Shown: positions 11,894 through 62,081 of the stretch, piece by piece
Position numbering within the stretch: position 1 is the stretch's first letter
Layout of the letters: the number at the start of each line of letters is the position of its first letter
NCBI GenBank assembly: GCA_001004105.1
Contig: LCQK01000003.1
Span: 46,805-110,804, forward strand
Reading direction: 5' to 3'
DNA from: Candidatus Jorgensenbacteria bacterium GW2011_GWB1_50_10
GTDB lineage: Bacteria; Patescibacteriota; Minisyncoccia; UBA6257; GWB1-50-10
Length of the DNA: 64,000 nucleotides
Notes under the pieces: model-generated
Seen by the model: only the letters and a program-made list of their open reading frames with translations
Told to the model about the DNA's origin: nothing
Database searches by the model: none
Position numbers and translations under genes: made by a program

Positions 11894-11944
11894 GTTTTTA
11901 CTGGGTAGTCAGTTGTTTTGTTGCTCTATTCTCGCATATAAAAT

Positions 11945-12053: not shown

Positions 12054-12749
12054 ATGGCGAAAAAGACGGATGAACTGGTGCAGTTTGCGGGCCACTTCCA
12101 GTCGCTCGCGACTGCGGTTTCCCGCAACCTCGAAGAGCGCGGCGTAAACGTTGTTGAGGCAATCGCGGAGGCCGCAAAGCCGCAAGGCGCTCGGGCGGTC
12201 GCGAAGATCGTAGACGCGCTCGCCGAACTCGTTGAAAACGGCAAGCGGGTCGTCGGCGCTCTCAATCTCATCGTGGCCGACATCGCCGTGAAGACCGAAC
12301 TCTTCACAAAAAATTCGTTCTTCGGCGAGGGGAGCCCAGTAAAACTCTACATCTGGGATAACTTCCGGAACTGGGTACTCACGGCTATCCTTGAGAATAT
12401 ACCTGCGTTCCAGGGTATGCTCGTGAAGCACCAACTCACGAAGGGGATGTATGACTCGGAGATTCTCTCCGGACTCGGGCATCCCACGCCGTTCTCACCA
12501 ACCGAGTTCGCGGCTGTCATTCGCGACCTCATCTCCAAGCAATCGAGAGGCGAGGAGGGCCTTCTCCTCACGAACGGCTACGCCAACATCTTCTATGTAC
12601 AGTTGCCTGCCGGCGCAGGCGGGGAAGATGCACGCGTGGTCGCGGTGCGCGTGACCTGGAACGCCGGGGACGACGACTGGCACCTGGACGCCTACGGCTT
12701 GGACGACGACGGGTGGGGTGACGGTGTCTGCGTGTTCTCTCGCAGCTGA
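12054..12749 (+). CDS. DGR target (variable) protein 1, 231 aa, unassigned family
   Basis: GC-rich ORF whose last 37 codons are the VR. It has no signal peptide or TM segment, and an SD-like AGAGAGG lies upstream of the ATG. A paralog lies at 48342..48932. Confidence 0.85.
   Translation: MAKKTDELVQFAGHFQSLATAVSRNLEERGVNVVEAIAEAAKPQGARAVAKIVDALAELVENGKRVVGALNLIVADIAVKTELFTKNSFFGEGSPVKLYIWDNFRNWVLTAILENIPAFQGMLVKHQLTKGMYDSEILSGLGHPTPFSPTEFAAVIRDLISKQSRGEEGLLLTNGYANIFYVQLPAGAGGEDARVVAVRVTWNAGDDDWHLDAYGLDDDGWGDGVCVFSRS
12602..12623. repeat. decayed copy of the 20-bp palindrome (17/20 with a 2-nt insertion) inside target 1, read as LPAGAGG
   Basis: GTTGCCTGCCGGCGCAGGCGGG lies 9 bp upstream of the VR. 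The paralog has a 6-codon shorter segment at this point (PEDGP versus LPAGAGGEDAR). Confidence 0.6.
12632..12743 (+). repeat. DGR variable repeat VR1
   Basis: 112 bp with 99/112 identity to the TR. All 13 differences lie at TR adenines. Confidence 0.9.
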
Positions 12750-12782
12750 TCTCGGATTTTCGGTCTCTTGGCAATAGTAGTG

Positions 12783-12998: not shown

Positions 12999-13110
12999 AC
13001 GCGTGGTCGCGGTGAACGTGAACTGGAACGCCGAGAACGACGACTGGAACCTGAACGCCAACGGCTTGGACGACGACAGGTGGAATGACGGTAACTGCGT
13101 GTTCTCTCGC
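12999..13110 (+). repeat. DGR template repeat (TR)
   Basis: Non-coding and rich in AAC codons in the VR frame (encodes ...VNVNWNAENDDWNLNANGLDDDRWNDGNCVFSR). It is the adenine-bearing partner of VR1. Confidence 0.9.
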
Positions 13111-13125
13111 CGCTTACCTTTTATA

Positions 13126-13470
13126 TCAGTTCTTTGGGAGCTGTTTTAGCCAACCGCCCAGCATTTTTCCAACTTCGTCAACTTTTCCAGAAAGCGCGGC
13201 GTATTTTTTCGTGTCCAGAGATTTGATTTGCCAGGCAATTTGGAGGAAAAATTTTAGTGAGTCAAGTTTAAAAGAGGAATTCCTGATTTTTGCAAACCGT
13301 TCGGCTGGCGTGAGAGGGGCGGCTGAGAAAATTTCTTCGATAATATCCAAGAAAAGCAAATCTACTTTTACGCCGAGAGTATAGCGCGAGGTTTTGGGAA
13401 AATGAGGCGCGAATTCTTGCCAAAGCGTGTAGGCCGCGATTAGTTTCTGAATAATTGGCAGTTCATTCCG
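13126..13470 (-). CDS. avd: Avd-like accessory variability determinant (four-helix-bundle / 23S-IVS protein family); start codon unresolved
   Basis: The reading frame encodes NELPIIQKLIAAYTLWQEFAPHFPKTSRYTLGVKVDLLFLDIIEEIF...KYAALSGKVDEVGKMLGGWLKQ, a typical Avd pattern. There is no in-frame ATG, GTG or TTG upstream of 13359. An ATG at 13519 is out of frame by one base across a G9 tract. Confidence 0.7.
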   Translation of the reverse strand, partial: RNELPIIQKLIAAYTLWQEFAPHFPKTSRYTLGVKVDLLFLDIIEEIFSAAPLTPAERFAKIRNSSFKLDSLKFFLQIAWQIKSLDTKKYAALSGKVDEVGKMLGGWLKQLPKN

Positions 13471-13472: not shown

Positions 13473-13481
13473 GGGGGGGGG
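13473..13481. repeat. homopolymeric G9 (C9 on the avd strand) tract
   Basis: Nine consecutive G, 18-26 nt upstream of the RT ATG and inside the 5' region of avd. Loss of one base would fuse the ATG at 13519 to the avd frame. Confidence 0.9.
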
Positions 13482-13498
13482 TTAGAGGACGGGAATTT

Positions 13499-14482
13499 AT
13501 GAAAATTCAATTGAGCCATAAATTCGAAGATATTATTTCACTGGAAAATCTTTTGGAAGCATGGCGAGAATTTTTGCGCGGCAAGAGAAATAAAAGAGAC
13601 GTTCAGGAATTCTCATCGCGTTTAATGGATAACATTCTATTACTTCACAGCGAACTTCGCAATAAAACCTACAAGCACGGGAAGTACGAAGCCTTTAACA
13701 TCTCCGACCCCAAACCGAGAAACATCCACAAAGCCGCCGTCCGCGACCGCCTACTTCATTACGCTATTTACAGGGTTTTATATCCGTTTTTTGATAAGGT
13801 ATTCATCGCCGATTCTTTTTCCTGCCGTTTGGGAAAAGGGACGCACAGAGCCATCAACCGCTTTAGAACTTTTGCTTATAAAGTGAGTAAAAATAATACC
13901 AAAACCTGCTGGGTTTTAAAGTTGGATATTAGGAAATTCTTCGCGAGTATTGACCATGAAATTTTGATAAAAATTCTTGAGGAATACATACCCGACCAAG
14001 ACATTATCTGGTTGCTGAAGAAAGTGATAGAAAGTTTTTATTCGACCGAACCCGGCAAGGGCCTGCCTTTAGGCAATTTAACCTCCCAGCTTTTAGTAAA
14101 TGTTTACATGAACAAGTTTGACCAATTTGTGAAACACAAGTTCAAGGCCAAGTATTACGTGAGATACGCCGATGATTTTGTGATTGTGTCGAAAAACGGA
14201 ATATGGCTTGAAAGTTTAATTCCGAGAATCAGCGAATTTCTAAACAGAGAATTGAAGTTAAAACTTCACGACGATAAGATATTCATTAAAACTTTAGCTT
14301 CGGGAGTAGATTTCCTTGGCTGGGTTCACTTTCCGGATTACCGAGTTCTGCGAACCACGACCAAAAGAAGAATGTTTAAAAGAATCAAAGAACATCCCGC
14401 GCCGGAAACAATAAATTCTTATTTGGGATTATTAAGGCACGGGAACGCTTATAAATTAAAAAGAAAAATTATTGCTGAATAA
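13499..14482 (+). CDS. DGR-type reverse transcriptase
   Basis: 327 aa. The N-terminus reads [20 protein letters not shown]. Motif 4 [20 protein letters not shown] carries the SQ typical of DGR RTs, and the catalytic motif is [11 protein letters not shown]. There is no maturase or endonuclease extension, and the gene is visibly AT-rich. Confidence 0.9.
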
Positions 14483-46192: not shown

Positions 46193-46251
46193 TTTAAAGT
46201 TACCTTTGTTATACCCCTATGCACCTTAAGCACGGGGGTCTTATCGCGTTT

Positions 46252-48228
46252 ATGGGTCAATTTCAAATCACAAAAACATTTCAGCCGGACGGTGACCAAC
46301 CAAAAGCGATAAAGGCGCTTGTTGAAGGGCTAAATTATGGTTACGGAAACCAGACGCTTTTGGGCGTGACCGGTTCGGGCAAAACCTTTACGGTTGCAAA
46401 TGTCATCGAAAAAATCGGCAAGCCCACACTCTACATTGCTCACAACAAGACCCTGGCGGCCCAGCTCTGCAATGAGCTCCGGGAGTTTTTTCCGGGAAAT
46501 TCTGTCCATTATTTCGTCTCCTACTACGACTACTATCAGCCGGAGGCCTACATGCCCATAACTGACACTTATATCGGCAAGGAAGCGATGATTAACGACG
46601 AGATAGACAAGTTGCGCCACGCGGCGACAACTGCGCTTTTGACGCGCAATGACGTGATTGTGGTCGCGTCCGTCTCCTGCATTTACGGCCTTGGCGCGCC
46701 CGAGGTTTACGCCGAGAATATCTTCCATTTCAAAGCCGGCGACAAAGTGGACCGTTCCAAATTCGTGCGCAAGCTCGTGGAATTGCAGTTTAAGCGGACG
46801 AGCGCCGACCTGAAACGCGGCACTTTCCGGTTGCGGGGCGACAATTGGGAAATCATGCCGCCGGATCGGGAAGTGATTTACAATCTGGAATTGGAGAAAG
46901 GAAAAATAAAAACCATTTACGAAATTGACCCGGTAAAAGGTTTTCAAAAGGAAAAAACACCCACCCTTTCTGAAATTTACATTGCCCCCGCTAGACATTT
47001 CATCACACCTTTACCGGAGCGCGAGCGGGCGATTAAAGCGATTGAAGCGGAACTTGCAGAGCGGCTGAAATATTTTGAAAGGGAGGGAAAACTGCTTGAG
47101 GCCGAGCGGCTGGAACGCCGGACAAGAGGGGACTTAGCCATGATTCGGGAAATCGGCTACTGCAACGGCATTGAGAATTATTCGCGCCATCTCTCCGGCC
47201 GCCGAGCTGGTGAGCCGCCGGAGACGCTGCTTGATTATTTTCCAAAGGACTTCTTGACCGTGATTGACGAATCGCATGTTACTGTGCCTCAACTTCACGG
47301 TATGTACGAGGGTGATGCCTCGCGGAAGAAAACGCTCATTGAATTCGGTTTCCGGCTGCCTTCCGCCGCCGACAATCGGCCGCTTATGTTTCCGGAATTC
47401 GAAAGCAAAGTGGGGCAGGTAATTTACACTTCGGCGACCCCGGGCCCGTACGAGAGGAGAAAAAGCAATCAGATCGTAGAGCAAATCATCCGGCCGACCG
47501 GTTTGGTTGACCCGGAAATAGTTATTCGACCGGCTCGAGGCCAGGTTGACGATTTGATTCCGAGAATTAAAGAAAGAGTAGACGTGAAAGAGCGCGTTTT
47601 AGTGACCACGCTTACCAAGCGAATGGCCGAAGATTTAAGTTCTTATTTGGAAGAGCAGGGCATTAAAGTGACGTATCTCCACAGCGACGTTAAAACTTTG
47701 GATAGAATCAGGATTTTGACGAATTTGAGAAGAGGTAATTTCGACGTTCTGGTCGGCGTGAATCTGCTCCGCGAAGGACTGGACCTGCCGGAAGTTTCGC
47801 TTGTCGCGATTTTGGACGCGGATAAGGAGGGGTTTCTGCGTTCGGAAACCTCGCTTATCCAGACCATTGGCCGGGCCTCCCGCAATGTCAGTGGCCAAGT
47901 TTTGATTTATGCCGATAACATTACCGGTTCGGTAAAGCGCGCCGTGGATGAAACTGAACGCCGCCGCAAAATCCAGATTGAATATAACTTGCGTCACGGC
48001 ATCACGCCGAAAACAATCGTGAAGAAAATCACCGACATCGTGCCGGTCGAGGAAATCCTGAATTTGGAAATGAAACCCTTGCCGCGCTCTAAAGCGGAAA
48101 TTAAGAAAATAATCGCCGGAAAAGAAAAAGAAATGAGAGAAGCAGCAAGTAGACTTGATTTTGAACTCGCGGCAGTTTTAAGAGATGAAATTAAAGCTTT
48201 ATCTAAGAAGGCGGGGAAGCAGTTTTGA
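46252..48228 (+). CDS. uvrB: excinuclease ABC subunit B
   Basis: [20 protein letters not shown] start, [10 protein letters not shown] Walker A, and a C-terminal UVR domain [15 protein letters not shown]. Confidence 0.95.
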
Positions 48229-48341
48229 GAAGTTGACAAGATTAGATTTTTGTGCTAAAGCTTAAACTAGCACGAACTGGCAACCTAAAGCCCCAACGAA
48301 TGTTGAGGGTGAGAGGAAACCATAACAAGGAGAGGCAAAGA

Positions 48342-48932
48342 ATGATGAAGGGAACGAACGGACTCGAGTGGCTTGCGGACCGCTGGCAGTCGGTTGCGAC
48401 TGCAGTTCCCCGCCGCTTTGAGAATCGTGGAGTTAGCGGCGGGGAGGTAATTGCCGCCGTAACCAAGCCCCAGACCAGGAGTATTGTGGTCCAGACCGAG
48501 CCCTTTGCTAAGGACTCGTTCTTTGGGGAGAGCGGTCCCGCGGAGCTCTGCATTTGGGACAACTTCCGAACCCAGGTGCTATCAGCAGTTTCCGAGACCG
48601 TGCCCGCGTTTCGAGGCACGCTCACGAGAACTGAGCTTGAGGAGCACATGGGGGACTCCGAGATTTTCGCCAACGGGACATCCCGGCCGCTCCTCTCGCC
48701 GGACGATTTTGTTGCGGTCGTCCGTGACCTCATCTCCCGCCAGCCGAGAGGTGAGAGGGGAATCCTTCTCACAAACGGGGATGCCAACATCTTCCATGTG
48801 CAGCCGGAGGATGGACCTGTGGTTGCGGTGCGTGGGCGCTGGCGCGTTGGTCTCGGCGGTTGGAGCCTGCGCGCGTATGGCCGGGACGACGTCAGATGGC
48901 TCAAAGGCCACTGCGTGTTCTCCCGCGGCTGA
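48342..48932 (+). CDS. DGR target-family paralog 2 (196 aa) with diverged VR-like C-terminus
   Basis: The start at ATG 48342 follows AAGGAGAGG, and [22 protein letters not shown] aligns with the MAKKTDELVQFAGHFQSLATAV start of target 1. Shared blocks include IWDNFR, PAF.G, VIRDLIS.Q.RGE.G.LLTNG.ANIF.VQ and the C-terminal CVFSR. Confidence 0.8.
48819..48926 (+). repeat. VR-like repeat (VR2), diverged from the TR at both adenine and non-adenine positions
   Basis: Aligns codon-for-codon with TR 13003-13110. By hand count there are about 19 mismatches at TR adenines and about 17 elsewhere. The conserved ends are GTGGT.GCGGTG and CTGCGTGTTCTC.CGC. Confidence 0.6.
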
Positions 48933-48965
48933 CCCATCTACCGCAGTTCTCGCAAAGTAGCACAG

Positions 48966-48998
48966 ACAGGCCGCAAGAGGTTTCCTCTTGCGGCCTGT
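48966..48998 (+). terminator. perfect 15-bp hairpin downstream of VR2 (terminator and/or DGR-type hairpin)
   Basis: ACAGGCCGCAAGAGG TTT CCTCTTGCGGCCTGT, then TCCTGTTTTT. It starts 40 nt after the end of VR2, the same spacing as at VR1. Confidence 0.7.
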
Positions 48999-49062
48999 TC
49001 CTGTTTTTACTAAACTTGAGATACTACCCCTATATGAACCAAAAAGAGGGGCAGTTTCTGTT

Positions 49063-51588
49063 ATGCAGGACAAAATTGTTATAAAAGGAGCAAGAGAGCA
49101 TAATCTCAAGAACGTCAATCTGGAAATTCCTCGCGACAAAATGGTGGTTTTTACCGGGCTTTCCGGGTCGGGGAAATCCTCGCTGGCTTTTGACACGATT
49201 TTTGCCGAGGGCCAGCGCCGCTACATTGAATCGCTCTCGGCCTATGCCCGGCAGTTTTTAGGTCGTTTGGACAAGCCTGATGTTGACGAAATTGACGGAT
49301 TATCGCCCGCGATTTCCATTGACCAGAAAAGCCATTCTCACAACCCGCGCTCCACGGTCGCGACCGTCACGGAAATTTACGATTATCTCCGCGTTCTTTT
49401 CGCCCGCGTGGGCATTCCCCATTGTCCGAAGTGCGGCCGGGAAATCAAAAAAATGACGAACGAGGAAATTGTGGATACCGTGCTCCGGATTTATCAAAAC
49501 AAAAAATCCGACAAAAACCTCGTGGTTTTGGCGCCGGCTGTCCGCGGCCGGAAAGGGGAATATTATCAGCTCCTTTACGATTTCTTAAACGCCGGTTTTC
49601 GAGAAGCACGCATTGACGGTAAGATTCATAACTTGCGGGAAAGAATTGAGCTTAGCCGTTACAAACAGCACACAATAGAGCTCGTGGTGGATAGATTGCC
49701 TGACGGTTTGGATATGCGCGAGAAGGACAATCGCTTGCGTTTGGCCGAAGCGGTGGAGTCGGCCTTGAAATACGGCAACGATGTTGTAACCGTGATTGCC
49801 GATGAAGAAGAAACTTCGCTCTCCGCCAAATTCACTTGTCCCAACGACAGTTACTCTTTTCCGGAAATAGAGCCGCGACTTTTTTCCTTCAACAGCCCCT
49901 ACGGCGCCTGCGAGGTCTGCCACGGTTTAGGGACGGAGAGCATTTGGTCGGAAAAACCCTGTCCCAAATGTTTAGGCAAGCGTCTGCGAGACGAAGCGTT
50001 AAGTGTTCTCATTGCTGATAAAAGCATTGCCTCGGTTGTGGCAAATTCTATAAGCAACGCCCGTAAATTCTGCGATGAAGTGGAAGGAAAAATTGACGAG
50101 AATTTCAAGGAGGTGGTTTCAGCGCCACTGCGCGAAATCAAAAACCGGCTGAAATTCATGATTGATGTCGGTTTGGAATATCTCACGCTTGAACGGCGAG
50201 CCGGGACGCTCTCGGGCGGCGAAGCTCAGCGTATCCGCCTCGCCTCCCAAATCGGTTCGCGTCTCACCGGCACGCTCTACATATTGGACGAACCGACTAT
50301 CGGTCTTCACCAGCGCGACAACGCGAAACTCATCGCTACTCTCCAAGATTTGCGGGATTTAGGGAACACCGTCCTCGTTGTGGAGCACGACGAGGAAACC
50401 ATCCGCCAGTCGGATTATCTCGTGGACATCGGGCCGGGCGCCGGCGTCCACGGCGGTAAAATCGTGGCCCAAGGGTCGATTCCCGAAATTCTCTCCGACA
50501 AAAAATCCAAGTCGCTCACCATCGATTACCTGAACGGCAGGGAATTCATTCCCGTGCCGGAGAAAAGACGGCCGGTGACGCGGAAGGGCGACTTTTTGGT
50601 GATAAAGGGCGCAAGCGCGAATAATCTGAAAGACATTGACGTGCAAATTCCCTTGCACCGGTTTGTGGCCGTAACCGGTGTTTCCGGCTCAGGAAAAAGT
50701 TCCTTGGTTTATGATGTCATCTACAAAGCGCTCGCCAATGCCTGGAACGGCGCAAATTATAAAGTCGGCGCGCATAAAGGCATGACCGGTTTGGAAAATT
50801 TGAACCGTGTGATTAATATTGACCAGTCGCCGATAGGTCGTACCCCGCGTTCCAATCCAGCCACTTATGTCGGCGCTTGGACTTTTATCCGCGAGCTTTT
50901 TGCCGCAACCGAAGACGCCCGCGTCCGCGGCTACAAGCCGGGACGCTTCAGTTTCAATGTCCGCGGCGGGCGGTGCGAAAACTGTGAAGGCCACGGCACG
51001 ATTGCGATTGAAATGCACTTTTTGCCGACCGTTTACGTCACTTGCGACGTCTGCAAAGGCAAGCGTTTTGATCGCGAGACTCTGGAAGTTGAATATAAAC
51101 ATAAGAACATTTATGACATCTTAAAGATGACCGTGGAGGAAACAGTGGAGTTTTTCCGCGATATTCCCTGGCTTTACGACCGGCTGAAAATTCTGGAAGA
51201 AGTGGGTTTGGGCTATTTAACGCTGGGGCAGTCGGCGACGACTTTGTCTGGCGGCGAGGCCCAGCGGATAAAACTCACGGCCGAACTCGGCAAGCGCGAC
51301 ACTAGGAAAACGATTTATCTTCTTGATGAACCGACGACCGGTCTTCATTTTGCCGACGTTCAGAATCTTTTGAAAGTTTTGGACCGGTTGGTCGCGCGCG
51401 GCAATACTGTTGTTGTGATTGAACATAACTTGGATGTCATCAAGACCGCTGACTGGGTGATTGACTTGGGGCCCGAAGGCGGCGAAAAGGGCGGGGAGAT
51501 GATTGTCGCCGCGCCACCCGAAGGCGTCATGAAAAAAGCCGGTAGTTTTACGGGCGCTTACCTCAAGAAAGCCCTCGCTAAAAAATGA
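49063..51588 (+). CDS. uvrA: excinuclease ABC subunit A
   Basis: The start was set at [18 protein letters not shown]. Two ABC modules ([12 protein letters not shown] and [11 protein letters not shown]), Zn fingers and LSGGE signatures are present. The ORF-track start at 48988 was rejected. Confidence 0.95.
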
Positions 51589-52814
51589 AAAAACTTCACG
51601 CCAAAATGCCAGATTCGCCGGGCGTCTACTTAATGAAAAACGCTCGCGGCCGGATTCTTTATATCGGCAAGGCGGCAAATTTAAAAAGGCGGGTTTCCAG
51701 TTATTTTTTGCGTCCCGCACGCCTGCCTGCCGGCAGGCAGGATTCGCGAATTGAAAAAATGGTGAGCGAGGTGCGCAAGATTGATTACAAAAAAACCGAC
51801 ACTGCTTTGGAAGCACTAATTTTGGAGGCGACTCTTATTAAAAAACACGAACCGCCCTATAACGTCAGAGAAAAAGACGACAAGAGCTTCCTTTACGTGG
51901 AAATAACGAAAGATAAATTCCCGCGAGTGCTTTTGGTGCGCGGCCGTGCCTACCGGCAGGCAGGCAAAAGCCGGGCGGGAGGGGATAGATTTGGACCGTT
52001 TACTTCTGCTTCAAGTGCGCGGGAGGCGCTCCGCATCATCCGCAAAATTTTTCCGTTCAGCGTCCATCCGGCGGATAAAATCGGCAAATTCAAGAAACCC
52101 TGTTTTGACTACGAAATTGGTCTTTGTCCGGGTACTTGCGCCGGTCTTATAGATAAGACCGATTATCTGAAGAACGTCAGAAACATCAAACTGCTTTTCC
52201 AAGGCAAGAAAGCGGCCATATTGAGGACGCTAAAACGGGAAATGGAAGCGGCGAGCAAGCGGCTGGACTTCGAAAAAGCCGCCAAATTACGGGGCCGGAT
52301 TTTCGCGCTGGAGCACGTGCAGGACGTGGCGCTCATCAAGAGCGAGGAAGACAGCGGTACGGAAAACAAGGCAAGAATTGAAGGATACGACATTTCCGAT
52401 ATTTCCGGGACATCGGCCGTGGGAGCGATGGTTGTTTTTCGCGGCGGCAGACCGGCACCGAATGAATACCGGAAGTTCAAAATCGGCACGGTTTTTAAAC
52501 CGAACGATACTGCAATGTTGAAAGAAGTGATTGGCCGGCGTTTGAACCATCGGGAATGGCCGCTGCCCGATTTATTCCTGATTGACGGCGGCAAGCCGCA
52601 GGTGAACGCCGCAAAAAAGATTCTCAGAGATTCCGGTTTCGTGATTCCGGTCGTGGGCATCGCCAAGGGCGCGAAACGAAAGAAAAACGAATTCATTGGT
52701 TCTATACCCTACAACCTATCACCTATAACCTTGATTAAGGTTCGCAACGAAGCCCACCGTTTCGCCCAAAGTTACCACAAAAGGTTAAGGAAAATAATCT
52801 CACTAGGTTTGTAA
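51585..52814 (+). CDS. uvrC: excinuclease ABC subunit C (short form, 409 aa)
   Basis: GIY-YIG N-terminus (GVYLMKNARGRILYIGKAANLKRRVSSYF), a UVR domain (DFEKAAKLRGRIFALE) and an RNase H-like endonuclease region. It carries one perfect and one decayed palindrome copy in-frame. I did not see a C-terminal (HhH)2 region. Confidence 0.88.
   Translation: MKKLHAKMPDSPGVYLMKNARGRILYIGKAANLKRRVSSYFLRPARLPAGRQDSRIEKMVSEVRKIDYKKTDTALEALILEATLIKKHEPPYNVREKDDKSFLYVEITKDKFPRVLLVRGRAYRQAGKSRAGGDRFGPFTSASSAREALRIIRKIFPFSVHPADKIGKFKKPCFDYEIGLCPGTCAGLIDKTDYLKNVRNIKLLFQGKKAAILRTLKREMEAASKRLDFEKAAKLRGRIFALEHVQDVALIKSEEDSGTENKARIEGYDISDISGTSAVGAMVVFRGGRPAPNEYRKFKIGTVFKPNDTAMLKEVIGRRLNHREWPLPDLFLIDGGKPQVNAAKKILRDSGFVIPVVGIAKGAKRKKNEFIGSIPYNLSPITLIKVRNEAHRFAQSYHKRLRKIISLGL
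51722..51741. repeat. 20-bp palindrome, copy 4 (inside uvrC, RLPAGRQD)
   Basis: Exact 20-mer within a loop of the GIY-YIG domain. Confidence 0.95.
51945..51964. repeat. decayed palindrome copy (18/20) inside uvrC (RAYRQAGK)
   Basis: CGTGCCTACCGGCAGGCAGG. Confidence 0.7.
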
Positions 52815-52899: not shown

Positions 52900-53412
52900 G
52901 TGGCCAAGACATCAAGAGATGCAAGAAGACATATAAGGGCAATAAGTGAGTTTTTTGCTGCCGGGAAAGCTGTAACCGAAGCCGCAGTTAATGATTTTAT
53001 CGGCACCTACAAAAAGAGGAAATTCTTAAAGCAAAGTTTGCGCCGGCTAATTGAAAAGGGTTTGGTTGAAAAGAAAAATAACAAGTTTGTTCCGACTCTC
53101 GCTGGTATCAGGTTTTTTCGTTCAAACATTGAGAGATCGTTGAAACCAAAAAATTGGGATGGTAAGTGGTACCTTTTAAGTTTTGACGTTCCGGTTAAAC
53201 TGAACGTAAAGAGAGACTATTTAAGAAGGGTGCTTAAAAGTTATGATTTTTATCCGCTCCAAAAGAGCGTTTGGGTGGGCCCGAATAAATTCGGCGACGA
53301 CCTTTGGGAATTTGTCGTTCAAAAGGAACTTAATAAATATTGCCGGGTTATGGTGGTGAGCGTTTTAGAAGGGGATGAGGATTTAAAAAAGTATTTCAAA
53401 ATCGGGTTTTAA
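52900..53412 (+). CDS. PaaX-like / Cas2-fold-containing putative regulator (GTG start)
   Basis: A winged-helix-like N-terminus (LRRLIEKGLVEKKNNKFVPTLAG) is followed by WDGKWYLLSFDVPVKLNVKRDYLRRVLKSYDFYPLQKSVWVGP. A TGTTATAAT box at 52885-52893 lies 6 nt before the GTG. Confidence 0.55.
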   Translation: MAKTSRDARRHIRAISEFFAAGKAVTEAAVNDFIGTYKKRKFLKQSLRRLIEKGLVEKKNNKFVPTLAGIRFFRSNIERSLKPKNWDGKWYLLSFDVPVKLNVKRDYLRRVLKSYDFYPLQKSVWVGPNKFGDDLWEFVVQKELNKYCRVMVVSVLEGDEDLKKYFKIGF

Positions 53413-53416
53413 TTTG

Positions 53417-53458
53417 TGTGCCTCAAAAACTCAGTATATGCTGAGTTTTTGAGGCACA
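53417..53458. terminator. 18-bp-stem hairpin after the PaaX-like gene (second family member)
   Basis: TGTGCCTCAAAAACTCAG TATATG CTGAGTTTTTGAGGCACA. Confidence 0.65.
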
Positions 53459-53503
53459 AACATGGTTAATTTGTTTAAATATTCAGTGGTATAATATTTA
53501 GTA

Positions 53504-55267
53504 ATGTCAGAAACGAGAATTTGCCAGAATTGCAAGCAACAATTCACGATTGAGCCGGACGATTTCGCGTTTTATAAAAAGATAAGCGTCCCGCCACCGA
53601 CGTGGTGCCCGGAGTGCAGGTTAGTGAGAAGGTTAATTGTTCGTAATGAACGGAGTTTGTATAGAAGAATCTGTGATCTTTGTGGAAAAGAGAAAATAAT
53701 GATGTTTTATCCTCAAAGTCCTTTCAAGGTATATTGCTACGAATGTTGGTTTGGCGATAACTGGAATCCAATGGGGTATGGGAAAGAATATGACTTTTCA
53801 CAGCCCTTTTTCGAACAGTTTAGTGATTTGCTCCATGTGGTACCGAGGCCGGGGATTCTAAAACAAGGATTCGCTATTGAGAGTGAATACACCAACCGAG
53901 TCAGCGAAATTAGAAATTGTTATCTTATTTTTGGCTCAACAGCTAGCGAAAACTGTTTTTACGGTTCGTGGGTAAATGATTCTAAAGAATGCGTTGACTG
54001 TTACAACCTCGGCAAATGCGAAAGATGTTATGACTGCACCGATTGTGTCGGTTGCTATAACCTTCAGTACTCTCGTGACTGCCATAGTTGCAGTAATTCT
54101 TATTTTCTTTTGAATTGCCGCAACTGCGAGAGTTGCTTTGGTTGCACGAATCTCCGCAATAAAAGCTACTGTGTTTTTAATAAACAATACGGCAAGGAGG
54201 AATATCAAAAACTACTCGAGGAACACAATTTGAAAAGCTCAGCCGCTATCAAAAGACTCCAGTCCCGGTTCATTTCGGAGCGTTCCAAGCATATTGTGCC
54301 GTCAATAATCCAACATCACAGTACGGATGTAAGCGGTAACTGGATTGAAGAATCCAAGAATGTTCATTACAGCTTCAACTGCCGAAATGTCGAGGATGGT
54401 AAGTACGTACTGGCGGCAGTAATTGCAAAAGATGTAATGGATTATGCTCATTTCGGACGCGGCGTTGAACGTATTTATGATTCAATCAACATTGGCCGCC
54501 AAGCCTCATCCGTCTTTTTTAGCAATGAAAGCTGGGACCAATCTTCAAATTTGCAGTATTGCATGAATTGCCGAGGTTCACAGAACCTTTTCGGGTGCAT
54601 CGGAGTTCGTAACAAAAGTTACTGTATCTTGAACAGGGAATATACCAAAGAAGAATACGAGAAGCTGGTTCCCCGCATTATTGAGCACATGAATACTATG
54701 CCCTACGCCGACAAGAAAGATAGGGTATACAAGTACGGCGAATTTTTCCCGCCGGAAATAACGCCATTCGCTTATAACGAGTCCCTCTCCCAAGAATTTT
54801 TTCCTCTAACAAAAGAAAGAGCGTCAGAACTCGGGTACCGCTGGAAAGATGAAGAGAATCGGAGCTACAAGATAACTGTAAAAAATAACGAAATTCCTGA
54901 TACTATTCGACTTGTTTCCGACGCGATACTCGATGATGTCATTGGCTGCGAACATGGTGGAAAATGCAACGAACAGTGCACGACGGCTTTTAAAATTGTT
55001 CCTCAAGAGCTTAATTTTTATAGACAATTTAATATTCCCCTTCCAAATCTTTGTCCCAACTGCCGTCATTATCAGAGATTAAAACAAAGAAATCCCCTAA
55101 AGCTTTGGCACAGAAAATGTATGTGTGATTACCAGGTTTATAAAAATACGGTGAAGCACGTTCATCATCCGGAAGGAAAGTGCCCGAACGAATTTAAAAC
55201 GTCCTACGCCCCCGAGAGGCCGGAAATCGTCTACTGCGAGCAGTGTTATAATTTCGAGGTAGTATGA
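53504..55267 (+). CDS. cysteine-rich protein with N- and C-terminal zinc-ribbon-like modules and internal Cys-repeat region
   Basis: CQNCKQQFTIEPDDFAFYKKISVPPPTWCPECR, repeated C..C..C.NL..S..C units (residues about 150-215), and a C-terminal CPNCRHYQRLK...CEQCY. A TATAAT box at 53490-53495 lies 8 nt before the ATG. Confidence 0.6.
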   Translation: MSETRICQNCKQQFTIEPDDFAFYKKISVPPPTWCPECRLVRRLIVRNERSLYRRICDLCGKEKIMMFYPQSPFKVYCYECWFGDNWNPMGYGKEYDFSQPFFEQFSDLLHVVPRPGILKQGFAIESEYTNRVSEIRNCYLIFGSTASENCFYGSWVNDSKECVDCYNLGKCERCYDCTDCVGCYNLQYSRDCHSCSNSYFLLNCRNCESCFGCTNLRNKSYCVFNKQYGKEEYQKLLEEHNLKSSAAIKRLQSRFISERSKHIVPSIIQHHSTDVSGNWIEESKNVHYSFNCRNVEDGKYVLAAVIAKDVMDYAHFGRGVERIYDSINIGRQASSVFFSNESWDQSSNLQYCMNCRGSQNLFGCIGVRNKSYCILNREYTKEEYEKLVPRIIEHMNTMPYADKKDRVYKYGEFFPPEITPFAYNESLSQEFFPLTKERASELGYRWKDEENRSYKITVKNNEIPDTIRLVSDAILDDVIGCEHGGKCNEQCTTAFKIVPQELNFYRQFNIPLPNLCPNCRHYQRLKQRNPLKLWHRKCMCDYQVYKNTVKHVHHPEGKCPNEFKTSYAPERPEIVYCEQCYNFEVV

Positions 55268-56895
55268 TTGCAGAAGAACTTAAAAAAATCGCGGGAGAAA
55301 TAGCGAACGACGCCGAAACACTTGAAAAATACAGCCGGGATGCGAGTTTATTTGAGATTAAGCCGGAGGTAGTTGTTTTTCCGAAGGACGCGGAAGACGT
55401 TAAAAAACTTGTTGCTTTCGTAGGTAAAAACAAGAAAAAGAACAAAAATTTATCGCTCACGCCGAGGGCGGGCGGGAGCGATATGACGGGCGGACCCCTC
55501 ACCGAATCAATTGTCGTTGATTTCAAGCATTTCGACCGTATCAAGGCGATAGGAGACGATTACGCCGTTGCCGAACCCGGCGTTTTTTACCGTGATTTCG
55601 AAAGGGAAACACTAAAGAAAAATTTGATTTTGCCGACCTATCCGGCCTCGCGTGAGATGTGCGCTCTGGGCGGAATGGTCGCGAACAACGCCGCTGGCGA
55701 GAAAACCTTAAAATACGGCAAAACCATTGACTATGTGGAAGAAATCAAAACCGTCCTTGCCGACGGCAAAGAATATCTGATTAAGCCGCTCAATCAGAAA
55801 GAATTGGCTAAGAAGATTAAAGGAAAGGGTTTTGAGAATAAAGTCTACCGTGAGATTTTCCGGTTAATCAAAAGAAATTACGAAATAATCCGGAAAGCAA
55901 AGCCAAGCGTTTCCAAAAATTCAGCAGGGTTAAATCTTTGGGATGTCTGGGACGGCAAAACTTTTGACCTCGTCAAACTTTTCGTCGGTTCCCAGGGGAC
56001 GCTCGGGCTTATTACGGAAGCGAAGCTGCGGCTCGTGCCGGCCGGGAAGTACTCGGGTTTGCTCGTAATTTTCATGAAAGACATGGCGGCTTTACCGGAA
56101 GTCATAAACAAAACTTTGAAATTGAAGCCGGCAAGTTTTGAATCCTTTGACGACCACACCTTCGGACTTGCCCTAAAATTCTTCACCGGCTTTTTGAAAG
56201 TGATGGGCGTGAACATCGTCTCGCTCGGTTTGCAATTTCTGCCCGAATTTTTCCACGTTCTCATAAACGGCATGCCAAAAATGGTTCTTCTTGCCGAATT
56301 TGAAGAAGAAAGCCAGGAAGAAGTGAACCGTAAAATAAGAGAATTAAAGCGTGCCTTGAAACCGTTCGAACTTTCCACCAAAAGCGCACCCACCGCTGAA
56401 TCGTCGAAGAAATACTGGGTGATGCGGCGGGAAAGCTTCAATCTTCTCCGGCACAAGGTGAAAGGGCTGAAAACCGCTCCTTTCATAGACGACGTCATTG
56501 TTCGGCCGGAGCATCTGCCGGAATTCCTGCCCAAACTTTACGAAATTCTGGACCGCTACAAGTTTTTATATACCGTGGCCGGCCACGTCGGCGACGGAAA
56601 TTTCCACATTATTCCGCTTATGGATTTTAACGACCAAAAACAGGTTGACTTGATTCCCAAAGCGGCCGATGAGGTTTATGATTTGGTTTTGCGATACGGC
56701 GGCTCCATCACCGCCGAGCACAATGATGGTTTGATTCGGGGCGCTTATCTTAAAAAGATGTATGGCTCGAAAATCTTCGCTCTTTTCCGGAAAGTCAAAA
56801 AAATATTCGACCCGCAGGATATTTTCAATCCCGGCAAAAAATCCGAGGCGGCAAACCTCAAAACACTTCTTTACAAAAACTTGAGAAAACAATAG
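55264..56895 (+). CDS. FAD-binding oxidoreductase (GlcD / D-lactate dehydrogenase-like)
   Basis: FAD_binding_4-type motifs LSLTPRAGGSDMTGG and GGMVANNAAG, plus a C-terminal GGSITAEHNDG. Confidence 0.8.
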   Translation: MIAEELKKIAGEIANDAETLEKYSRDASLFEIKPEVVVFPKDAEDVKKLVAFVGKNKKKNKNLSLTPRAGGSDMTGGPLTESIVVDFKHFDRIKAIGDDYAVAEPGVFYRDFERETLKKNLILPTYPASREMCALGGMVANNAAGEKTLKYGKTIDYVEEIKTVLADGKEYLIKPLNQKELAKKIKGKGFENKVYREIFRLIKRNYEIIRKAKPSVSKNSAGLNLWDVWDGKTFDLVKLFVGSQGTLGLITEAKLRLVPAGKYSGLLVIFMKDMAALPEVINKTLKLKPASFESFDDHTFGLALKFFTGFLKVMGVNIVSLGLQFLPEFFHVLINGMPKMVLLAEFEEESQEEVNRKIRELKRALKPFELSTKSAPTAESSKKYWVMRRESFNLLRHKVKGLKTAPFIDDVIVRPEHLPEFLPKLYEILDRYKFLYTVAGHVGDGNFHIIPLMDFNDQKQVDLIPKAADEVYDLVLRYGGSITAEHNDGLIRGAYLKKMYGSKIFALFRKVKKIFDPQDIFNPGKKSEAANLKTLLYKNLRKQ

Positions 56896-56909
56896 ACTGG
56901 TTTTCAATC

Positions 56910-58193
56910 ATGCATAACCGAAAGCGGCTCGTTATTTTCTTGATTGTCTTGGTTCTGATTTCGGCGCTTGCCGCCTTTTTTGCTTACGAGCCGCTCTTCC
57001 AAAGGTGGAGCGGTTTTCGGCCGTGGCGGCTGGGATTGGACTTGGCCGGCGGCACTTATCTCGTTTACGAGGTTGACTTGAGCGGCGTGGCGCAGAGTGA
57101 CCGCGATTCAGTGGTGAAAGGTTTGCGCGACGTGATTGAGCGGCGAGTCAATCTTTTCGGCGTCTCCGAACCAAAGGTTTATTTGGAAACCAGCGGCGGC
57201 ATCAATCGCCTTGTTGTGGAGCTGGCCGGCATTAAGGATGTGAGCGCCGCCATCGCCCAAATTGGGGAAACGCCTTTCCTAGATTTCCGTGAGGTAATTG
57301 AAGGCCAAGAAGTGGTAGACGGCGAGGCGACGACAACCGCGAATATTGTCCCGACTGAACTTACTGGCCGCTACGTCAAGGGCGCCCAGCTCGGTTTTGA
57401 TTCGGTGAGCGGTCAGCCCCAGATTTATCTTCAGTTCACCGACGAGGGCGCCAAAATCTTTGAAGAAGTGACCGGCCGCAACGTCGGCAAGCCGCTCTGC
57501 ATATTCTTGGACAATCAAATCCGGAGCTTTGAAGAGGACTGCCCGATCGTGCAGGCGAAGATTTCCGGCGGCAACGCCCAAATTACCGGCCGGTTTACGA
57601 CCGCCGAGGCGCGGCAGATCGTTGAAAGATTCAACGCCGGAGCCTTGCCCGCGCCCATCAAGCTCATCAATCAGCAAACAATAAGCGCCGACTTCGGCAA
57701 GGATTCCCTCACTAAGGCGGTTTTTGCCGGCGCCATCGGCACCGCCGTCGTCATTCTTTTCATGCTTATTTATTACCGCCGCCTTGGGATTTTCGCCGCC
57801 GCCGCGCTTCTCATGTATGTTGCTCTCACGCTCGGCGTTTTTAAAATCATTCCCGTTACCATGACTTTGGCGGGCATTGCCGGTTTCATTCTTTCCATCG
57901 GCATGGCCGTTGACGCGAACATTCTTGTTTTCGAGCGGACCAAGGAAGAAATCAAAAAGGGTCTTTCCAAAACCGCGGCGATTGAAGAAGGTTTCCGCCG
58001 AGCCTGGACTTCCATCCGCGATTCCAATGTGAGCACGATGATCACTTCGGCCGTGCTCTATTATTTCACTTCCAGTTTCGTGAAAGGATTCGCCCTCGCC
58101 CTATTCCTCGGCGTCGTCGTTTCCATGTTTTCCGCGATCACGATAACGAGGGTGCTGCTCCGGGTTTTCACCAAGGACATTCCAAAAACATGA
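56910..58193 (+). CDS. secD: protein translocase subunit SecD
   Basis: LGLDLAGGTYLVYEVD, a periplasmic domain, then six TM segments with GMAVDANILVFER. Confidence 0.9.
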   Translation: MHNRKRLVIFLIVLVLISALAAFFAYEPLFQRWSGFRPWRLGLDLAGGTYLVYEVDLSGVAQSDRDSVVKGLRDVIERRVNLFGVSEPKVYLETSGGINRLVVELAGIKDVSAAIAQIGETPFLDFREVIEGQEVVDGEATTTANIVPTELTGRYVKGAQLGFDSVSGQPQIYLQFTDEGAKIFEEVTGRNVGKPLCIFLDNQIRSFEEDCPIVQAKISGGNAQITGRFTTAEARQIVERFNAGALPAPIKLINQQTISADFGKDSLTKAVFAGAIGTAVVILFMLIYYRRLGIFAAAALLMYVALTLGVFKIIPVTMTLAGIAGFILSIGMAVDANILVFERTKEEIKKGLSKTAAIEEGFRRAWTSIRDSNVSTMITSAVLYYFTSSFVKGFALALFLGVVVSMFSAITITRVLLRVFTKDIPKT

Positions 58194-59074
58194 TTGACGT
58201 CATCAAACATAAAAATATATACCTCGGTGTTTCTTTGGCGCTCGTCGTTTTGAGCTGGGCTTTGGTCGGTTTCCTAGGTTTGAAGCCGGGCATTGATTTG
58301 GTTGGCGGCACGGTCTGGCAGATTGACGCGCCGGAGGCGGATTTGGATGAAGTGCGGTCGGTTTTGAACGAAAATGGAGCGGCGGATTTTCAGATCAAGA
58401 TTGCGGGCGACGGCAGCTTCATTATCCGGTTGAAGGATTTGAGCGAAGAAAATCACCAAGGTTACTTGAGAGCGCTCCAGGATGAATTTCCCGCCGTAAC
58501 CGAGATGAATTTCTCGAGCATCGGCCCGACCATCGGCTCGGAACTCCGCCGAAGCTCCATTTGGGCGATTATTCTGGTTTTAATCGGCATCTCGCTCTAC
58601 GTCGCTTTCGCTTTCCGGAAAGTTTCCGAACCGGTCAAATCCTGGAAATACGGTTTGATTACTCTCCTTACGCTCCTTCATGACGTGAGCATTCCGGCCG
58701 GCCTTTTGGCCGTTTTGGGTGAGTGGAAAGGAATTGAGATAGACACCAATTTCATTGTCGCCCTTCTCGTGGTAATGGGCTTTTCCGTCCACGACACGAT
58801 AGTCGTTTTCGACCGGGTTCGGGAAAATCTTCAGCTTTTCCGCGGGCGCAACACGCCATTGGGTGAAATTGTGAACCGAAGCGTCAATGAAACCATAGCC
58901 CGCTCAATCAACACGTCGCTCACGCTGGTCCTTGTTCTTTTGGCGCTCATGGTTTTCGGTCCCGCCCCGCTTTTCTATTTTGTTCTTACGATTCTCTTCG
59001 GCACCGTCGTCGGCACCTATTCCTCCATTTTCGTCGCTAGCCCTATGCTGTACCTTTGGCAGAAAAAGAGGTGA
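58190..59074 (+). CDS. secF: protein translocase subunit SecF
   Basis: GIDLVGGT, LHDV and GFSVHDTIVVFDRVREN motifs. The gene overlaps the secD stop. Confidence 0.9.
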   Translation: MIDVIKHKNIYLGVSLALVVLSWALVGFLGLKPGIDLVGGTVWQIDAPEADLDEVRSVLNENGAADFQIKIAGDGSFIIRLKDLSEENHQGYLRALQDEFPAVTEMNFSSIGPTIGSELRRSSIWAIILVLIGISLYVAFAFRKVSEPVKSWKYGLITLLTLLHDVSIPAGLLAVLGEWKGIEIDTNFIVALLVVMGFSVHDTIVVFDRVRENLQLFRGRNTPLGEIVNRSVNETIARSINTSLTLVLVLLALMVFGPAPLFYFVLTILFGTVVGTYSSIFVASPMLYLWQKKR

Positions 59075-59138
59075 GTGGGTGGGGATTGACGCCCTTTCCC
59101 AAAAGTGCTAAAGTTTAGATTAATAATTTGTTACCAAT

Positions 59139-60158
59139 ATGGTTGATTTAGACAAATTCATTGCCAAAGTTACAGCCGATTTCAGCCCCAAACACCGCCG
59201 GGTAATTGAGGGCCGTTTTGGCCTGAAGTCCGGCAACCGGGCCACCCTGCAGAAAATAGGCGACGAGCTTCACATCACCCGCGAGCGGGTGAGGCAAATA
59301 GAAAGCCAGGCGGTGGGTAAACTTAAAACCAGGGTTGCGGCGGAGGCCGACAGCATCATTGCCGCATCACGGACATATTTAGCCGGAGCGGGTGGCATAA
59401 TGCGGGACGACAAATTCATCCGCGACCTGACCCACGTTTTGGAAACCGCCGATAAAAACACGAAATATCCGGAAGCCAAAATCAGGTTCGTTCTTTTGGT
59501 TGCCGGCGTTCCCAATTTCCAGGCCGCCGACGATTTCATGCACGGCTTTTGGTATACCGACGAAAAAGCCCGGGACGGTTTTTTGGGTTTCGTTAAAAGA
59601 GTCAAGAAGACCCTTGAAACGAGCCGCCGGGACGAAGTTTTGGAGAAAAAAGTTTATCTTGCCGAGTGTAAGGATTGCGCCACGGCTCATTTTTTGAACG
59701 TGCCGCGCATTTTTGGCGTGAATGTCTTCGGCGATTTTGGTTTGCGGGAATGGCCCGAGATTGAACCAAAAACCGTCCGCGACAAGGCCTATTTGGTTTT
59801 GAAAAAGGAGGGAAAGCCGCTGCATTTTTCCGATATCGCCAAATTCATTACCCGCGCTGGTCTTTCCAAAAGAACGGCTCACGTTCAGACCGTTCACAAC
59901 GAACTCATTAAAGACAACCGGTTCGTTTTGGTCGGCCGTGGCATTTACGCTCTCACCGAGCACGGCTTTGAGCCGGGCACTGTTCGGGAAGTAATCGGCA
60001 AGCTTTTGAAAAAGAAAGGACCGCTCTCTTCCACCGAAGTGGTGCGGCTTGTGAACCAACAGAGAATTTTGAAAGAAAACACCATCCTTTTGGGTTTGCA
60101 GAATAAGCGCCACTTCAAGCGTTTGACCGACGGACGTTATCATATAAGAGAAGCGTAA
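59139..60158 (+). CDS. sigma-70 region-4-like HTH protein with C-terminal HARE-HTH-like domain
   Basis: RFGLKSGNRATLQKIGDELHITRERVRQIESQAVGKLK, followed later by AYLVLKKEGKPLHFSDIAKFI. A candidate promoter TTGACG-17-TAAAGT lies at 59086-59114. Confidence 0.6.
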   Translation: MVDLDKFIAKVTADFSPKHRRVIEGRFGLKSGNRATLQKIGDELHITRERVRQIESQAVGKLKTRVAAEADSIIAASRTYLAGAGGIMRDDKFIRDLTHVLETADKNTKYPEAKIRFVLLVAGVPNFQAADDFMHGFWYTDEKARDGFLGFVKRVKKTLETSRRDEVLEKKVYLAECKDCATAHFLNVPRIFGVNVFGDFGLREWPEIEPKTVRDKAYLVLKKEGKPLHFSDIAKFITRAGLSKRTAHVQTVHNELIKDNRFVLVGRGIYALTEHGFEPGTVREVIGKLLKKKGPLSSTEVVRLVNQQRILKENTILLGLQNKRHFKRLTDGRYHIREA

Positions 60159-60164
60159 AAGCGC

Positions 60165-61556
60165 ATGCTTAAAAATCTCTTCGGCCACATCCTCGACGTT
60201 ATTGAAGAACTTTTCAAGCAGGAGGAGGTTTGGGTTTTTTTGTTTCTGATACTGCTCGGCGGGGCTTTAATTCTGTTTTTGCCCATAAAATACATCATCT
60301 GGGCGCTTTTGCCTTTTATAATTTTTGTGATTATTTTCTCACTCACCCGCTCGCTCTGGCTTTTCTGGCGGCAAGAAATGTACAAGCAAAAACATTTTAA
60401 GTGCGTGCTTTTAGAGCTCCGAATCCCGCGGCAGATTAAGAAAACGCCGGAGGCGATGGAACAGGTTTTGGCGGCGATGCATTCGCTACGGAACACGGCC
60501 AATAATCTTGGAGAAAAATATTGGGACGGTGAAATAACGCGTTGGTTCTCTCTAGAAGTTGTAAGTTTTGGCGGCGAAGTTCACTTCTATATCCGGGTTT
60601 ATGAAAAACAAAGAAACCTGCTTGAAGCCGCCCTTTTCTCTTATTATTCGGATATTGAAGTGGTGGAAGTGGAAGATTATGTTAATACATTTCCGCGGGA
60701 TTTACCCGAGGTGTACCGGCGGGATATGGACCTGTGGGGCAGCGAGATGGTCTTGAGGAAAGAAGACCTTTTCCCCATCAAAACTTACCCTTCTTTTGAA
60801 GCGGAGCTGGAAGAAAGACAGAACGACCCGATGTCCACCTTTTTGGAGGTTTTAGGCAAAGTTAAGCCCAGTGAAGTTGTCGGCATCCAAATTTTAATTG
60901 CCCCGGGTCTGGATGACTGGGATAAAAAATGGGAACCCCTTGTAAATAAATTAAAAGAACCAAAAACCAAAAAAGAGGAGAAGAAAGGCGCCGAGGGGCA
61001 AATGGAAAGTTTTGCGCGGTTTATTGCCCGGTCGCCGGTGGAAACCGACGTCTTGAAAGCCGTTGAAGAGAACCTTTCTAAGCCCGCTTTTAATACTTTA
61101 GTTCGTTTTATCTATCTCTCGCCCAAAAATATTTTTTATGACAGTTTTGCCCGCCGCGGCTTATCTGGCGCTTTCAATCAATACTCAACCCTCCATCTGA
61201 ACGGTTTTGTGCAAAATTACAAAATGAGTACGAGAACGCTTATTTGGCACTGGCCTCACCTTTTTCCCAGGTGGCGCAATGAATATAGAAAACAGCGACT
61301 CCTCTTCACATATCTCCGAAGAGAAGTGCCGCCCGAGACCTGGATGGGCCGGTTCATGACATCATATCCGTTAAACTTTAATTTTACCTCCCATCGTTTT
61401 CATCTGAACATAGAGGGAGCGGCTACTGTTTTTCATCCGCCGAGCTTAATCGTTCTTACCGAGCCGCATATCAGGCACTTGGAGAGCCGCCGCATGGGTC
61501 CGCCGTCCGGTTTGCCGATTTTCGGCGAAGACGAGGAGGTGGAAAAATACAAGTAG
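60165..61556 (+). CDS. TM protein homologous to the N-terminal half of ORF 29728..32076
   Basis: The blocks LLELRIPR, FSLEVVSFGGEVHFYIRV, PIKTY and VGIQILIAP align with LYLVRLPK, FVFEIAVPYVGEEIHFFVGV, PVRTY and GAIQFVIRRA. Confidence 0.65.
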   Translation: MLKNLFGHILDVIEELFKQEEVWVFLFLILLGGALILFLPIKYIIWALLPFIIFVIIFSLTRSLWLFWRQEMYKQKHFKCVLLELRIPRQIKKTPEAMEQVLAAMHSLRNTANNLGEKYWDGEITRWFSLEVVSFGGEVHFYIRVYEKQRNLLEAALFSYYSDIEVVEVEDYVNTFPRDLPEVYRRDMDLWGSEMVLRKEDLFPIKTYPSFEAELEERQNDPMSTFLEVLGKVKPSEVVGIQILIAPGLDDWDKKWEPLVNKLKEPKTKKEEKKGAEGQMESFARFIARSPVETDVLKAVEENLSKPAFNTLVRFIYLSPKNIFYDSFARRGLSGAFNQYSTLHLNGFVQNYKMSTRTLIWHWPHLFPRWRNEYRKQRLLFTYLRREVPPETWMGRFMTSYPLNFNFTSHRFHLNIEGAATVFHPPSLIVLTEPHIRHLESRRMGPPSGLPIFGEDEEVEKYK

Positions 61557-62081
61557 ATGAATTTACTGCAGTCAATCATCAATGCCGTTTCCGATTTTCC
61601 CTGGGTGCGCACTTTTTGGAGCGTCCGTTTCATTTTCATTGTTTTGAACATAATTCTCGCCGTTCTTTTCGTTTACGTTTTCATCCGGGCCCTGAAATAC
61701 CGGCCGAAGTTTTACTTCGATTCGGAAGCACTCGCCAAAAGAAAGAAAATCATAAGAGAAGGCGCGAAGTGGGGAGATAAGTGGAAATATCTTTTGGAAA
61801 AAGCCCGAGCGCATCCGCCGCAGTCGCTCTTTATGGGCGTGGTTGAAGCCGACGGTTTGGTGGATAGCGTTTTGAAAAAAATAGGCGTGCCTGGGGAACA
61901 CATGGCCGACCGCCTGGAGCGGCTTGCCGGCCGGAACTTGAAGACCATTGAGCGCCTCTGGAGAGCGCATAAAGTCCGCAATGACCTGGCTCACACGCCG
62001 GGCTTCACGCTTGATTCACACGACGCTGAGGAGATTTTGGGGGATTACGAAGCATTCCTAAAAGAAATAGGAGCGATATAG
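61557..62081 (+). CDS. single-TM hypothetical protein with an R-x4-H (HEPN-like) motif
   Basis: The start abuts the previous stop. One hydrophobic helix is followed by ...LWRAHKVRNDLAHTPGFTL.... Confidence 0.5.
   Translation: MNLLQSIINAVSDFPWVRTFWSVRFIFIVLNIILAVLFVYVFIRALKYRPKFYFDSEALAKRKKIIREGAKWGDKWKYLLEKARAHPPQSLFMGVVEADGLVDSVLKKIGVPGEHMADRLERLAGRNLKTIERLWRAHKVRNDLAHTPGFTLDSHDAEEILGDYEAFLKEIGAI

Follow-up and report, generated by a model that had tools for sequence, protein, structure and literature searches.

Variable proteins of DGRs with a C-type-lectin/FGE fold include Mtd of phage BPP-1 and TvpA of Treponema denticola (PDB 2y3c). DGRs of the CPR/Patescibacteria were reportedly treated by Paul et al. 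in Nat Microbiol in 2017. In cyanobacteria, DGR targets comprise dispersed paralogs and 'remote' variable proteins, with graded homology between the variable region (VR) and the template repeat (TR) (Vallota-Eastman et al. 2020, PMC7517822). [quoted passage not shown] The CPR/Patescibacteria DGRs form clade 2 of Roux et al. 2021, a survey that by its own statement misses targets far from the reverse transcriptase (RT) (PMC8144416). Stand-alone targets such as the one described here, and two others that we found (L019 and L021), therefore lie outside the catalogues of such surveys.

Here we describe a stand-alone member of a DGR target family, encoded between uvrB and uvrA and referred to below as the VR2 gene after its VR-homologous segment, VR2. 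We assign a probability of roughly 0.68 to the reading that it is an orphaned, frozen copy of a DGR variable-protein gene that is no longer diversified. Like the cyanobacterial paralogs (PMC7517822), it would be a ligand-binding module duplicated to a non-DGR locus of the same genome, with the VR-like stretch in the 3'-terminal part of the gene. Unlike them, it resides in a CPR host, its product is a very small target protein of ~200 aa without a kinase or protease partner domain, and the whole promoter-to-terminator cassette appears to have been copied. As in Thiohalocapsa PB-PSB1 (PMC10907252), the target gene lies away from the complete DGR and service in trans is at issue; but whereas several remote VRs of that organism match the TR at every non-adenine site, VR2 differs from the resident TR at 17 of them, and we found no cognate TR for it within the ~82 kb searched. 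Target paralogs at dispersed sites and degenerate DGR loci are on record already, and the VR2 gene is a further example. It is useful chiefly as a clean and calibrated case that comes with a filled/empty pair of insertion sites.

The window, that is the whole stretch of DNA analysed (64,000 nucleotides), includes the gene for 16S rRNA as well as small genes typical of the CPR. It comes from Candidatus Jorgensenbacteria, a CPR/Patescibacteria lineage represented among the MAGs of Rifle groundwater. Both target paralogs and the RT occur, as exactly these proteins, under the locus tags UY26, UY32 and UY55 of Jorgensenbacteria MAGs. One RT and one Avd are present in the window, and they belong to a canonical DGR whose target gene carries VR1 (Table 1). 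VR1 and TR form a textbook cognate pair: they differ at 13 positions, and all 13 are TR adenines. The order target(+)-TR(+)-Avd(-)-RT(+) is shared with three relatives, L002, L011 and L023, and the RTs of these four loci are 70-76% identical across CPR lineages. The TR of the window itself lacks a terminator hairpin of the type seen after VR1 and VR2.

Table 1. Positions in the window of the canonical DGR, the stand-alone paralog with its cassette, and the neighbouring genes.
Feature	Position	Strand	Remark
VR1-gene promoter, TTGACA-17-TATACT	11944-11972	+	strong; 11/12 in promoter scan
Canonical DGR target gene (VR1 gene)	12054..12749	+	VR1 near 3' end
VR1	12636-12743	+	within target gene 12054..12749
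VR1-gene terminator hairpin	12782-12819	+	~40 nt past VR1
TR (template repeat)	13003-13110	+	
Avd accessory gene (bAvd)	13126-~13500	-	frame open; no canonical start where relatives start
DGR reverse transcriptase (RVT_1)	13499..14482	+	
uvrB	46219..48228	+	left neighbour of the cassette
Inserted cassette, ~834 bp	48229..49062	+	uvrB stop to uvrA start; empty site in L023
Promoter candidate, TTGACA-17-TAAAGC	48233..48261	+	TGn before -10; aligned with 11944-11972
Paralog CDS (VR2 gene), 196 aa	48342..48932	+	RBS GGAGAGG at 48329-48335
VR2, VR-homologous segment, 36 codons	48819..48926	+	17 non-A and 19 A mismatches to TR
Intrinsic terminator, 15-16-bp hairpin + T run	48965..49008	+	~40 nt past VR2, as at VR1
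uvrA	49063..51588	+	right neighbour of the cassette
uvrC	51585..52814		after uvrA

The paralogy of the two target proteins, first proposed in a sequence-only reading of the window, is borne out: they are 46% identical (BLASTP, E = 3e-61; E = 4e-47 in the family test), and the blocks IWDNFR, PAF.G, RDLIS.Q.RGE.G.LLTNG.ANIF.VQ and CVFSR are all present in the stand-alone copy. The flanks that were named as conserved, GTGGT.GCGGTG and CTGCGTGTTCTC.CGC, occur in the window at VR1, TR and VR2 only. The same reading described a self-contained cassette at the uvrB/uvrA junction, with uvrC following, and its neighbours are as stated. Its hairpin terminator is detected by the terminator scan (48965-48999, with a T run), and the segment 48927-49012, comprising the hairpin and its flanks, folds as DNA at -22 kcal/mol (z = -5.3). 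In both paralog genes a hairpin of 15-17 bp with a T run follows about 40 nt after the VR. The proposed promoter fared less well: the TTGACA-17-TAAAGC site is present and positionally homologous to the promoter of the VR1 gene, but its -10 box is weaker and fails the -10 rule of the promoter scan. The two cassettes are homologous from TTGACAAG across the 5' UTR as far as the RBS, and both end in a terminator hairpin of their own. The homologous unit that the two loci have in common extends from the -35 box to the terminator; TR, Avd and RT lie outside it. The GC content of the insert is 62%, against 49% for the window and 60% for the VR1 gene.

The filled junction has an empty counterpart. In L023, a related Patescibacteria genome, the gene order S18-PAP2-uvrB-uvrA-...-uvrC is the same as in the window, with UvrB 76% and UvrA 82% identical, and the uvrB stop codon and the uvrA ATG are 1 nt apart. 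Because this junction consists of a single nucleotide, the ~834 bp between the two genes in the window are an insert. Synteny continues downstream through genes for an FAD-oxidase, SecD, SecF, a sigma factor, a DUF8128 protein and a 175-aa protein. The relative in turn has two complete DGRs, separated by ~9 kb, on one 50.8-kb contig (L023 10001-12464 and L026 3555-6008), both inserted in a block that is syntenic with positions 52900-62081 of the window, where the window has none. Such alignments indicate that whole DGRs are probably presence/absence polymorphic on a conserved CPR backbone. Taken with the uvrB/uvrA insert, the DGR insertions of the relative suggest that both DGRs and target cassettes move on this backbone. 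In these small CPR genomes, where target cassettes and whole DGRs would be mobile on a syntenic backbone, the filled/empty pair allows the study of how they move.

The insertion showed no remnants of transposons or MITEs. The sequence GGGG(AAG)CAGTTT, found on either side of the insert, at the end of uvrB (48212-48225) and shortly ahead of the uvrA start (49046-49056), may be a short target-site duplication, but its shortness and its gap forbid claiming it as one; the repeat search was silent on it. Three independent short metagenome contigs (L008, L009 and L010) all end at window positions 48969-48995, inside the terminator hairpin. The first 64 nt of L009 are a divergent uvrB, with 19 mismatches at 47784-47847. 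These contig ends and the divergence in L009 could stem from a drop in coverage at the hairpin or from variation among co-occurring strains.

The target family is large and without a name in the databases that we consulted. An exhaustive HMMER search yielded 639 cluster representatives at E <= 1e-3, mostly of 160-235 aa, which share the core and a C-terminal scaffold, VVAV.V.W......W.L.A..L....W..G.CVFSR[SG], to which the paralog conforms; Pfam, NCBIfam and the PDB sequence profile gave no match for the family. The top HMMER match, P0008 (7571 aa), was discarded as a low-complexity tandem-repeat artefact. The AF2 model of the VR2 protein has a pLDDT of 86.5, with block means that exceed 90 from residue 51 onward and very confident placement of residues 45-196, and a Foldseek search with this model against PDB and BFVD found nothing. 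We infer that the product is most likely a soluble protein of ~21 kDa whose scaffold is distantly C-type-lectin/FGE-like and presents a fixed surface for ligand binding.

Within this family, the gene directly upstream of a TR-Avd(-)-RT(+) unit is the VR1 gene in the window and the corresponding target in L002, L011 and L023. This is not the case for the VR2 gene, which is followed by uvrA, nor for L019 and L021. The latter two (L019 5001-5684 and L021 5001-5657) are stand-alone members in other CPR genomes. The 5 kb around each contain neither an RT nor a TR; one of them is flanked by housekeeping genes, the other by recJ and an RNase H gene. Orphan or remote copies thus seem common in this target family.

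The closest relative of the VR2 protein is the VR1 protein, with a core identity of 54% as opposed to 43-51% to other members. The two also have in common an N-terminal region that the family as a whole does not conserve. DGR-linked proteins from other genomes (57-64%) are nevertheless nearer to the VR1 protein than the VR2 protein is, and the core pN against other members is 0.34-0.35 for VR2 and 0.22-0.25 for VR1. A closest relative in the same genome combined with the higher core pN points to VR2 as an in-lineage duplicate on a long branch.

We then turned to the relation between VR2 and the resident TR. The last 36 codons align codon-for-codon and ungapped with the TR over 108 nt, as the sequence-only reading had it, and its hand count of mismatches proved exact: tabulated by TR base, 19 of the 26 adenines and 17 of the 82 other bases differ (36 in total), which leaves 67% identity. 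The bias toward adenines is highly significant (Fisher p = 2e-6; p = 1e-7 when only codon positions 1-2 are taken). At 11 of the 17 non-adenine differences the change is synonymous and lies in the third codon position. Of the 18 adenines in AAY codons of the TR, 15 are changed in VR2, and the codons at the nine AAY positions are all of the form NNY (CGT, CGC, CGC, CTC, AGC, CGC, TAT, CTC and CAC; p about 0.004 given a background of 54% NNY). This fits the descent of VR2 from an AAY-templated VR.

Such a table acquires its meaning only from comparison. We therefore calibrated it on cognate VR/TR pairs, from the window and from four loci of three other genomes, and on foreign VRs of L011, L023, L019 and L021 set against the window TR. 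The cognate pairs show 0-1 non-adenine mismatches: none in the window (with 13 at adenines), one in L002 (19), none in L011 (20), none in L023 (21) and one in L026, which serves another target family (22). The foreign VRs show 15-21 non-adenine and 16-23 adenine mismatches, namely 17 and 19 for L011, 18 and 23 for L023, 15 and 16 for L019, and 21 and 16 for L021. VR2, with 17 and 19, falls inside the foreign range, and its table is identical to that of L011. VR2 is no closer to the resident TR than are the VRs of other genomes. The reason lies in the templates: the four family TRs share the pattern VV[AVT]VNVN[WR]N...WN.NAN.L...[RQ]WNDGNCVFS, and since this design is conserved across genomes, any VR of the family differs from the window TR at its adenines. 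The weight that the adenine bias had seemed to carry is thereby lost, for the placement of TR adenines is family-wide and foreign VRs give the same bias. What the bias indicates is that VR2 probably descends from a DGR-written VR; it says nothing about this TR as the writer.

Active or recent remote service of VR2 by the TR at 13003-13110 is accordingly very improbable. The 67% identity, the strong adenine bias, the conserved flanks and the downstream hairpin would speak for such service, and VR2 passes the loose >50% threshold of TR identity used in some surveys (PMC7517822). The strict non-adenine criterion, however, rules it out as a target of the resident TR: its 17 mismatches at bases other than adenine are distributed between positions 6 and 105, and a single homing event would erase them all. 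That this TR could not fully explain VR2 had been suspected from the start, and the contrast with the 0-1 such mismatches of cognate pairs makes the point quantitative. Between VR2 and VR1 or the TR, silent divergence (pS) falls from a saturated 0.73 in the core to 0.43 in the VR; this was entertained as a trace of rewriting after the duplication and rejected, because every cross-genome pair drops likewise, for example from 0.70 to 0.40 between VR1 and L023. The drop therefore reflects a general constraint on VR/TR scaffold codons and not a shared recent history. For the annotation of DGRs this carries a caution, as 67% identity to a TR and a highly significant adenine bias are possible in a gene that is not a target of that TR. 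Where the TR design is conserved, the discriminating statistic is the count of non-adenine mismatches, calibrated on cognate and foreign pairs.

A different template could still serve VR2. In this alternative, VR2 is the live remote target of a second template that lies at another site of the genome or on a co-resident element and has co-diverged with it, and a second RT, or the resident RT and Avd in trans, does the writing. [quoted passage not shown] The 3' context is preserved as well: VR2 ends 6 nt before the stop codon, and it is followed by a GCTGAC context of the VR type and, ~40 nt downstream, by the 15-16-bp hairpin, which may let a DGR still recognise it. When the template was looked for, however, none appeared. 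On both strands of the 64-kb window no position other than VR2 itself has fewer than 17 non-adenine mismatches, and none was found in the 8.7 kb of upstream and 9.6 kb of downstream flank taken from other assemblies. The search for a second TR that the sequence-only reading had proposed thus came out negative over ~82 kb of a larger genome, for which the longest contig carrying the region measures 295 kb.

Degenerate patterns (VR2 with any base allowed to be A) and flank patterns were also run on public collections of genomes, metagenomes and viral contigs. These DNA collections returned no VR1, TR or VR2, so that the organism is absent from them and their negatives are silent on the rest of its genome. 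Apart from L002, the matches of the pattern scan were due to chance. In protein searches with VR1, VR2 and the RT, no third family member named for Jorgensenbacteria MAGs occurred among all reported matches, and no second RT named for them among the best 120 matches listed; this speaks weakly against a second canonical DGR of the target family in the assembled parts. The genomic arrangement of the family argues in the same direction, as all four canonical loci have the TR 363-432 nt downstream of a family target (VR start to TR start). The two complete DGRs of the close relative make a second system in this lineage conceivable, but the one in L026 serves a different target family. The longer branch of the VR2 protein and the degraded -10 box of its gene likewise sit poorly with a live target, and altogether we consider a second template unlikely.

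With the resident TR set aside as an active or recent writer on account of the 17 non-adenine differences, a blend of two of the three options originally offered for VR2, a former VR that has drifted and a paralog that is no longer diversified, fits best and is the frozen copy that we favour.

The VR2 protein occurs in five sequence versions that differ solely in the called start or in W15L (48385 G/T), and the VR2 segment is identical in all five, on about nine contigs from NCBI, ENA and JGI assemblies and several samples. The SNP at 48385 implies that at least two haplotypes were sampled. The VR1 protein is a single sequence on 10 contigs, including the MAGs in which the two alleles of the VR2 gene occur. 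Consensus invariance was therefore dropped as a proxy for activity, VR1 (10 contigs) being as invariant as VR2 (about nine), so that it does not separate the two sites. The 20 mismatches of contig L009 were likewise dismissed as VR2 variation, since all lie at the uvrB end of the contig or at the known SNP.

The Avd frame of the window aligns to those of its relatives, and at the position where they start it has no ATG, GTG or TTG, just ATT, ATA or CTG. A run of 9-10 C (plus-strand G, about 13474-13483) lies in its 5' end. The window DGR may currently be off or phase-variable, and the lack of variants in VR1 on 10 contigs would fit a DGR that is switched off or phase-variable.

A frozen copy may be kept or may decay. 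The weakened -10 box, the long branch and the 29-aa and 6-aa deletions relative to the VR1 protein could be taken to mark the cassette as a functionless relic, a pseudogene in the making; yet the ORF is intact in every assembly, as are the RBS and the terminator, and the non-VR dN/dS between the VR2 and VR1 genes is 0.16. Our protein and HMMER searches found no orthologue of the VR2 gene outside this species, and His replaces a nearly invariant Tyr at residue 152, but 13 of the 14 family-invariant or near-invariant residues are kept and the fold is predicted with very high confidence over residues 45-196. The VR2 gene is probably still under overall purifying selection, and we regard decay into a relic as doubtful.

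Under the favoured reading, that of an orphaned and frozen copy, the following sequence of events would account for the locus. A VR1-like ancestor would have had its entire expression cassette duplicated, -35 box and terminator hairpin included but short of TR, Avd and RT, and the copy would have entered the formerly 1-nt uvrB|uvrA junction. The copy would have retained the variable region as it stood in its DGR-served ancestor when the duplication took place, and this inherited state would explain why the codons at AAY template positions look randomised and yet are all NNY. Because any homing event would erase the 17 non-adenine differences, VR2 cannot have been rewritten by this TR or its recent ancestors since those differences arose. 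A cognate template would then be lacking elsewhere in the genome as well. The VR2 gene would be transcribed from its own weakened promoter, and the DGR-linked copy would be the sole remaining substrate of the retroelement. If the copy is maintained by selection, a product of hypermutation would have become fixed as an ordinary gene. A bolder proposal, which we hold to be improbable, is that CPR DGR target cassettes, from promoter to terminator, are themselves mobile and archive useful DGR-made binding specificities out of reach of the template, here in a 1-nt uvr junction, or else that the copy is served in trans by a second template that was not assembled.

Several minor observations concern the ends of the cassettes and their composition. 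After the shared ...TCTCG[CA], the TR continues with GCTTAY in all four canonical loci, and the VR continues with GCTGAY (GTTGAC in L011), which holds the stop codon. This difference is a candidate IMH/IMH* discriminator, and VR2 is of the VR type. The TRs of L002, L011 and L023 are followed at ~14 nt by a hairpin of 9-11 bp, and the window TR by a weak one of 6 bp (13111-13145). At the other end, P0291, a protein on short ENA contigs, matches the 5' leader and the first ~75 residues of the VR1 protein at 86-88% identity (window 11967-12278). Beyond this it has a different C-terminal domain, one of the target family served by the second DGR, in L026 (3555-4190; VR at 4077, TR at 4478). One promoter and N-terminal module thus appears to be common to two distinct DGR target families. 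Finally, the GC content of both target paralogs is 60-62%, compared with 49% for the genome and 38.5% for the RT gene, and L023 repeats this contrast, with 60% in the target against 42%.
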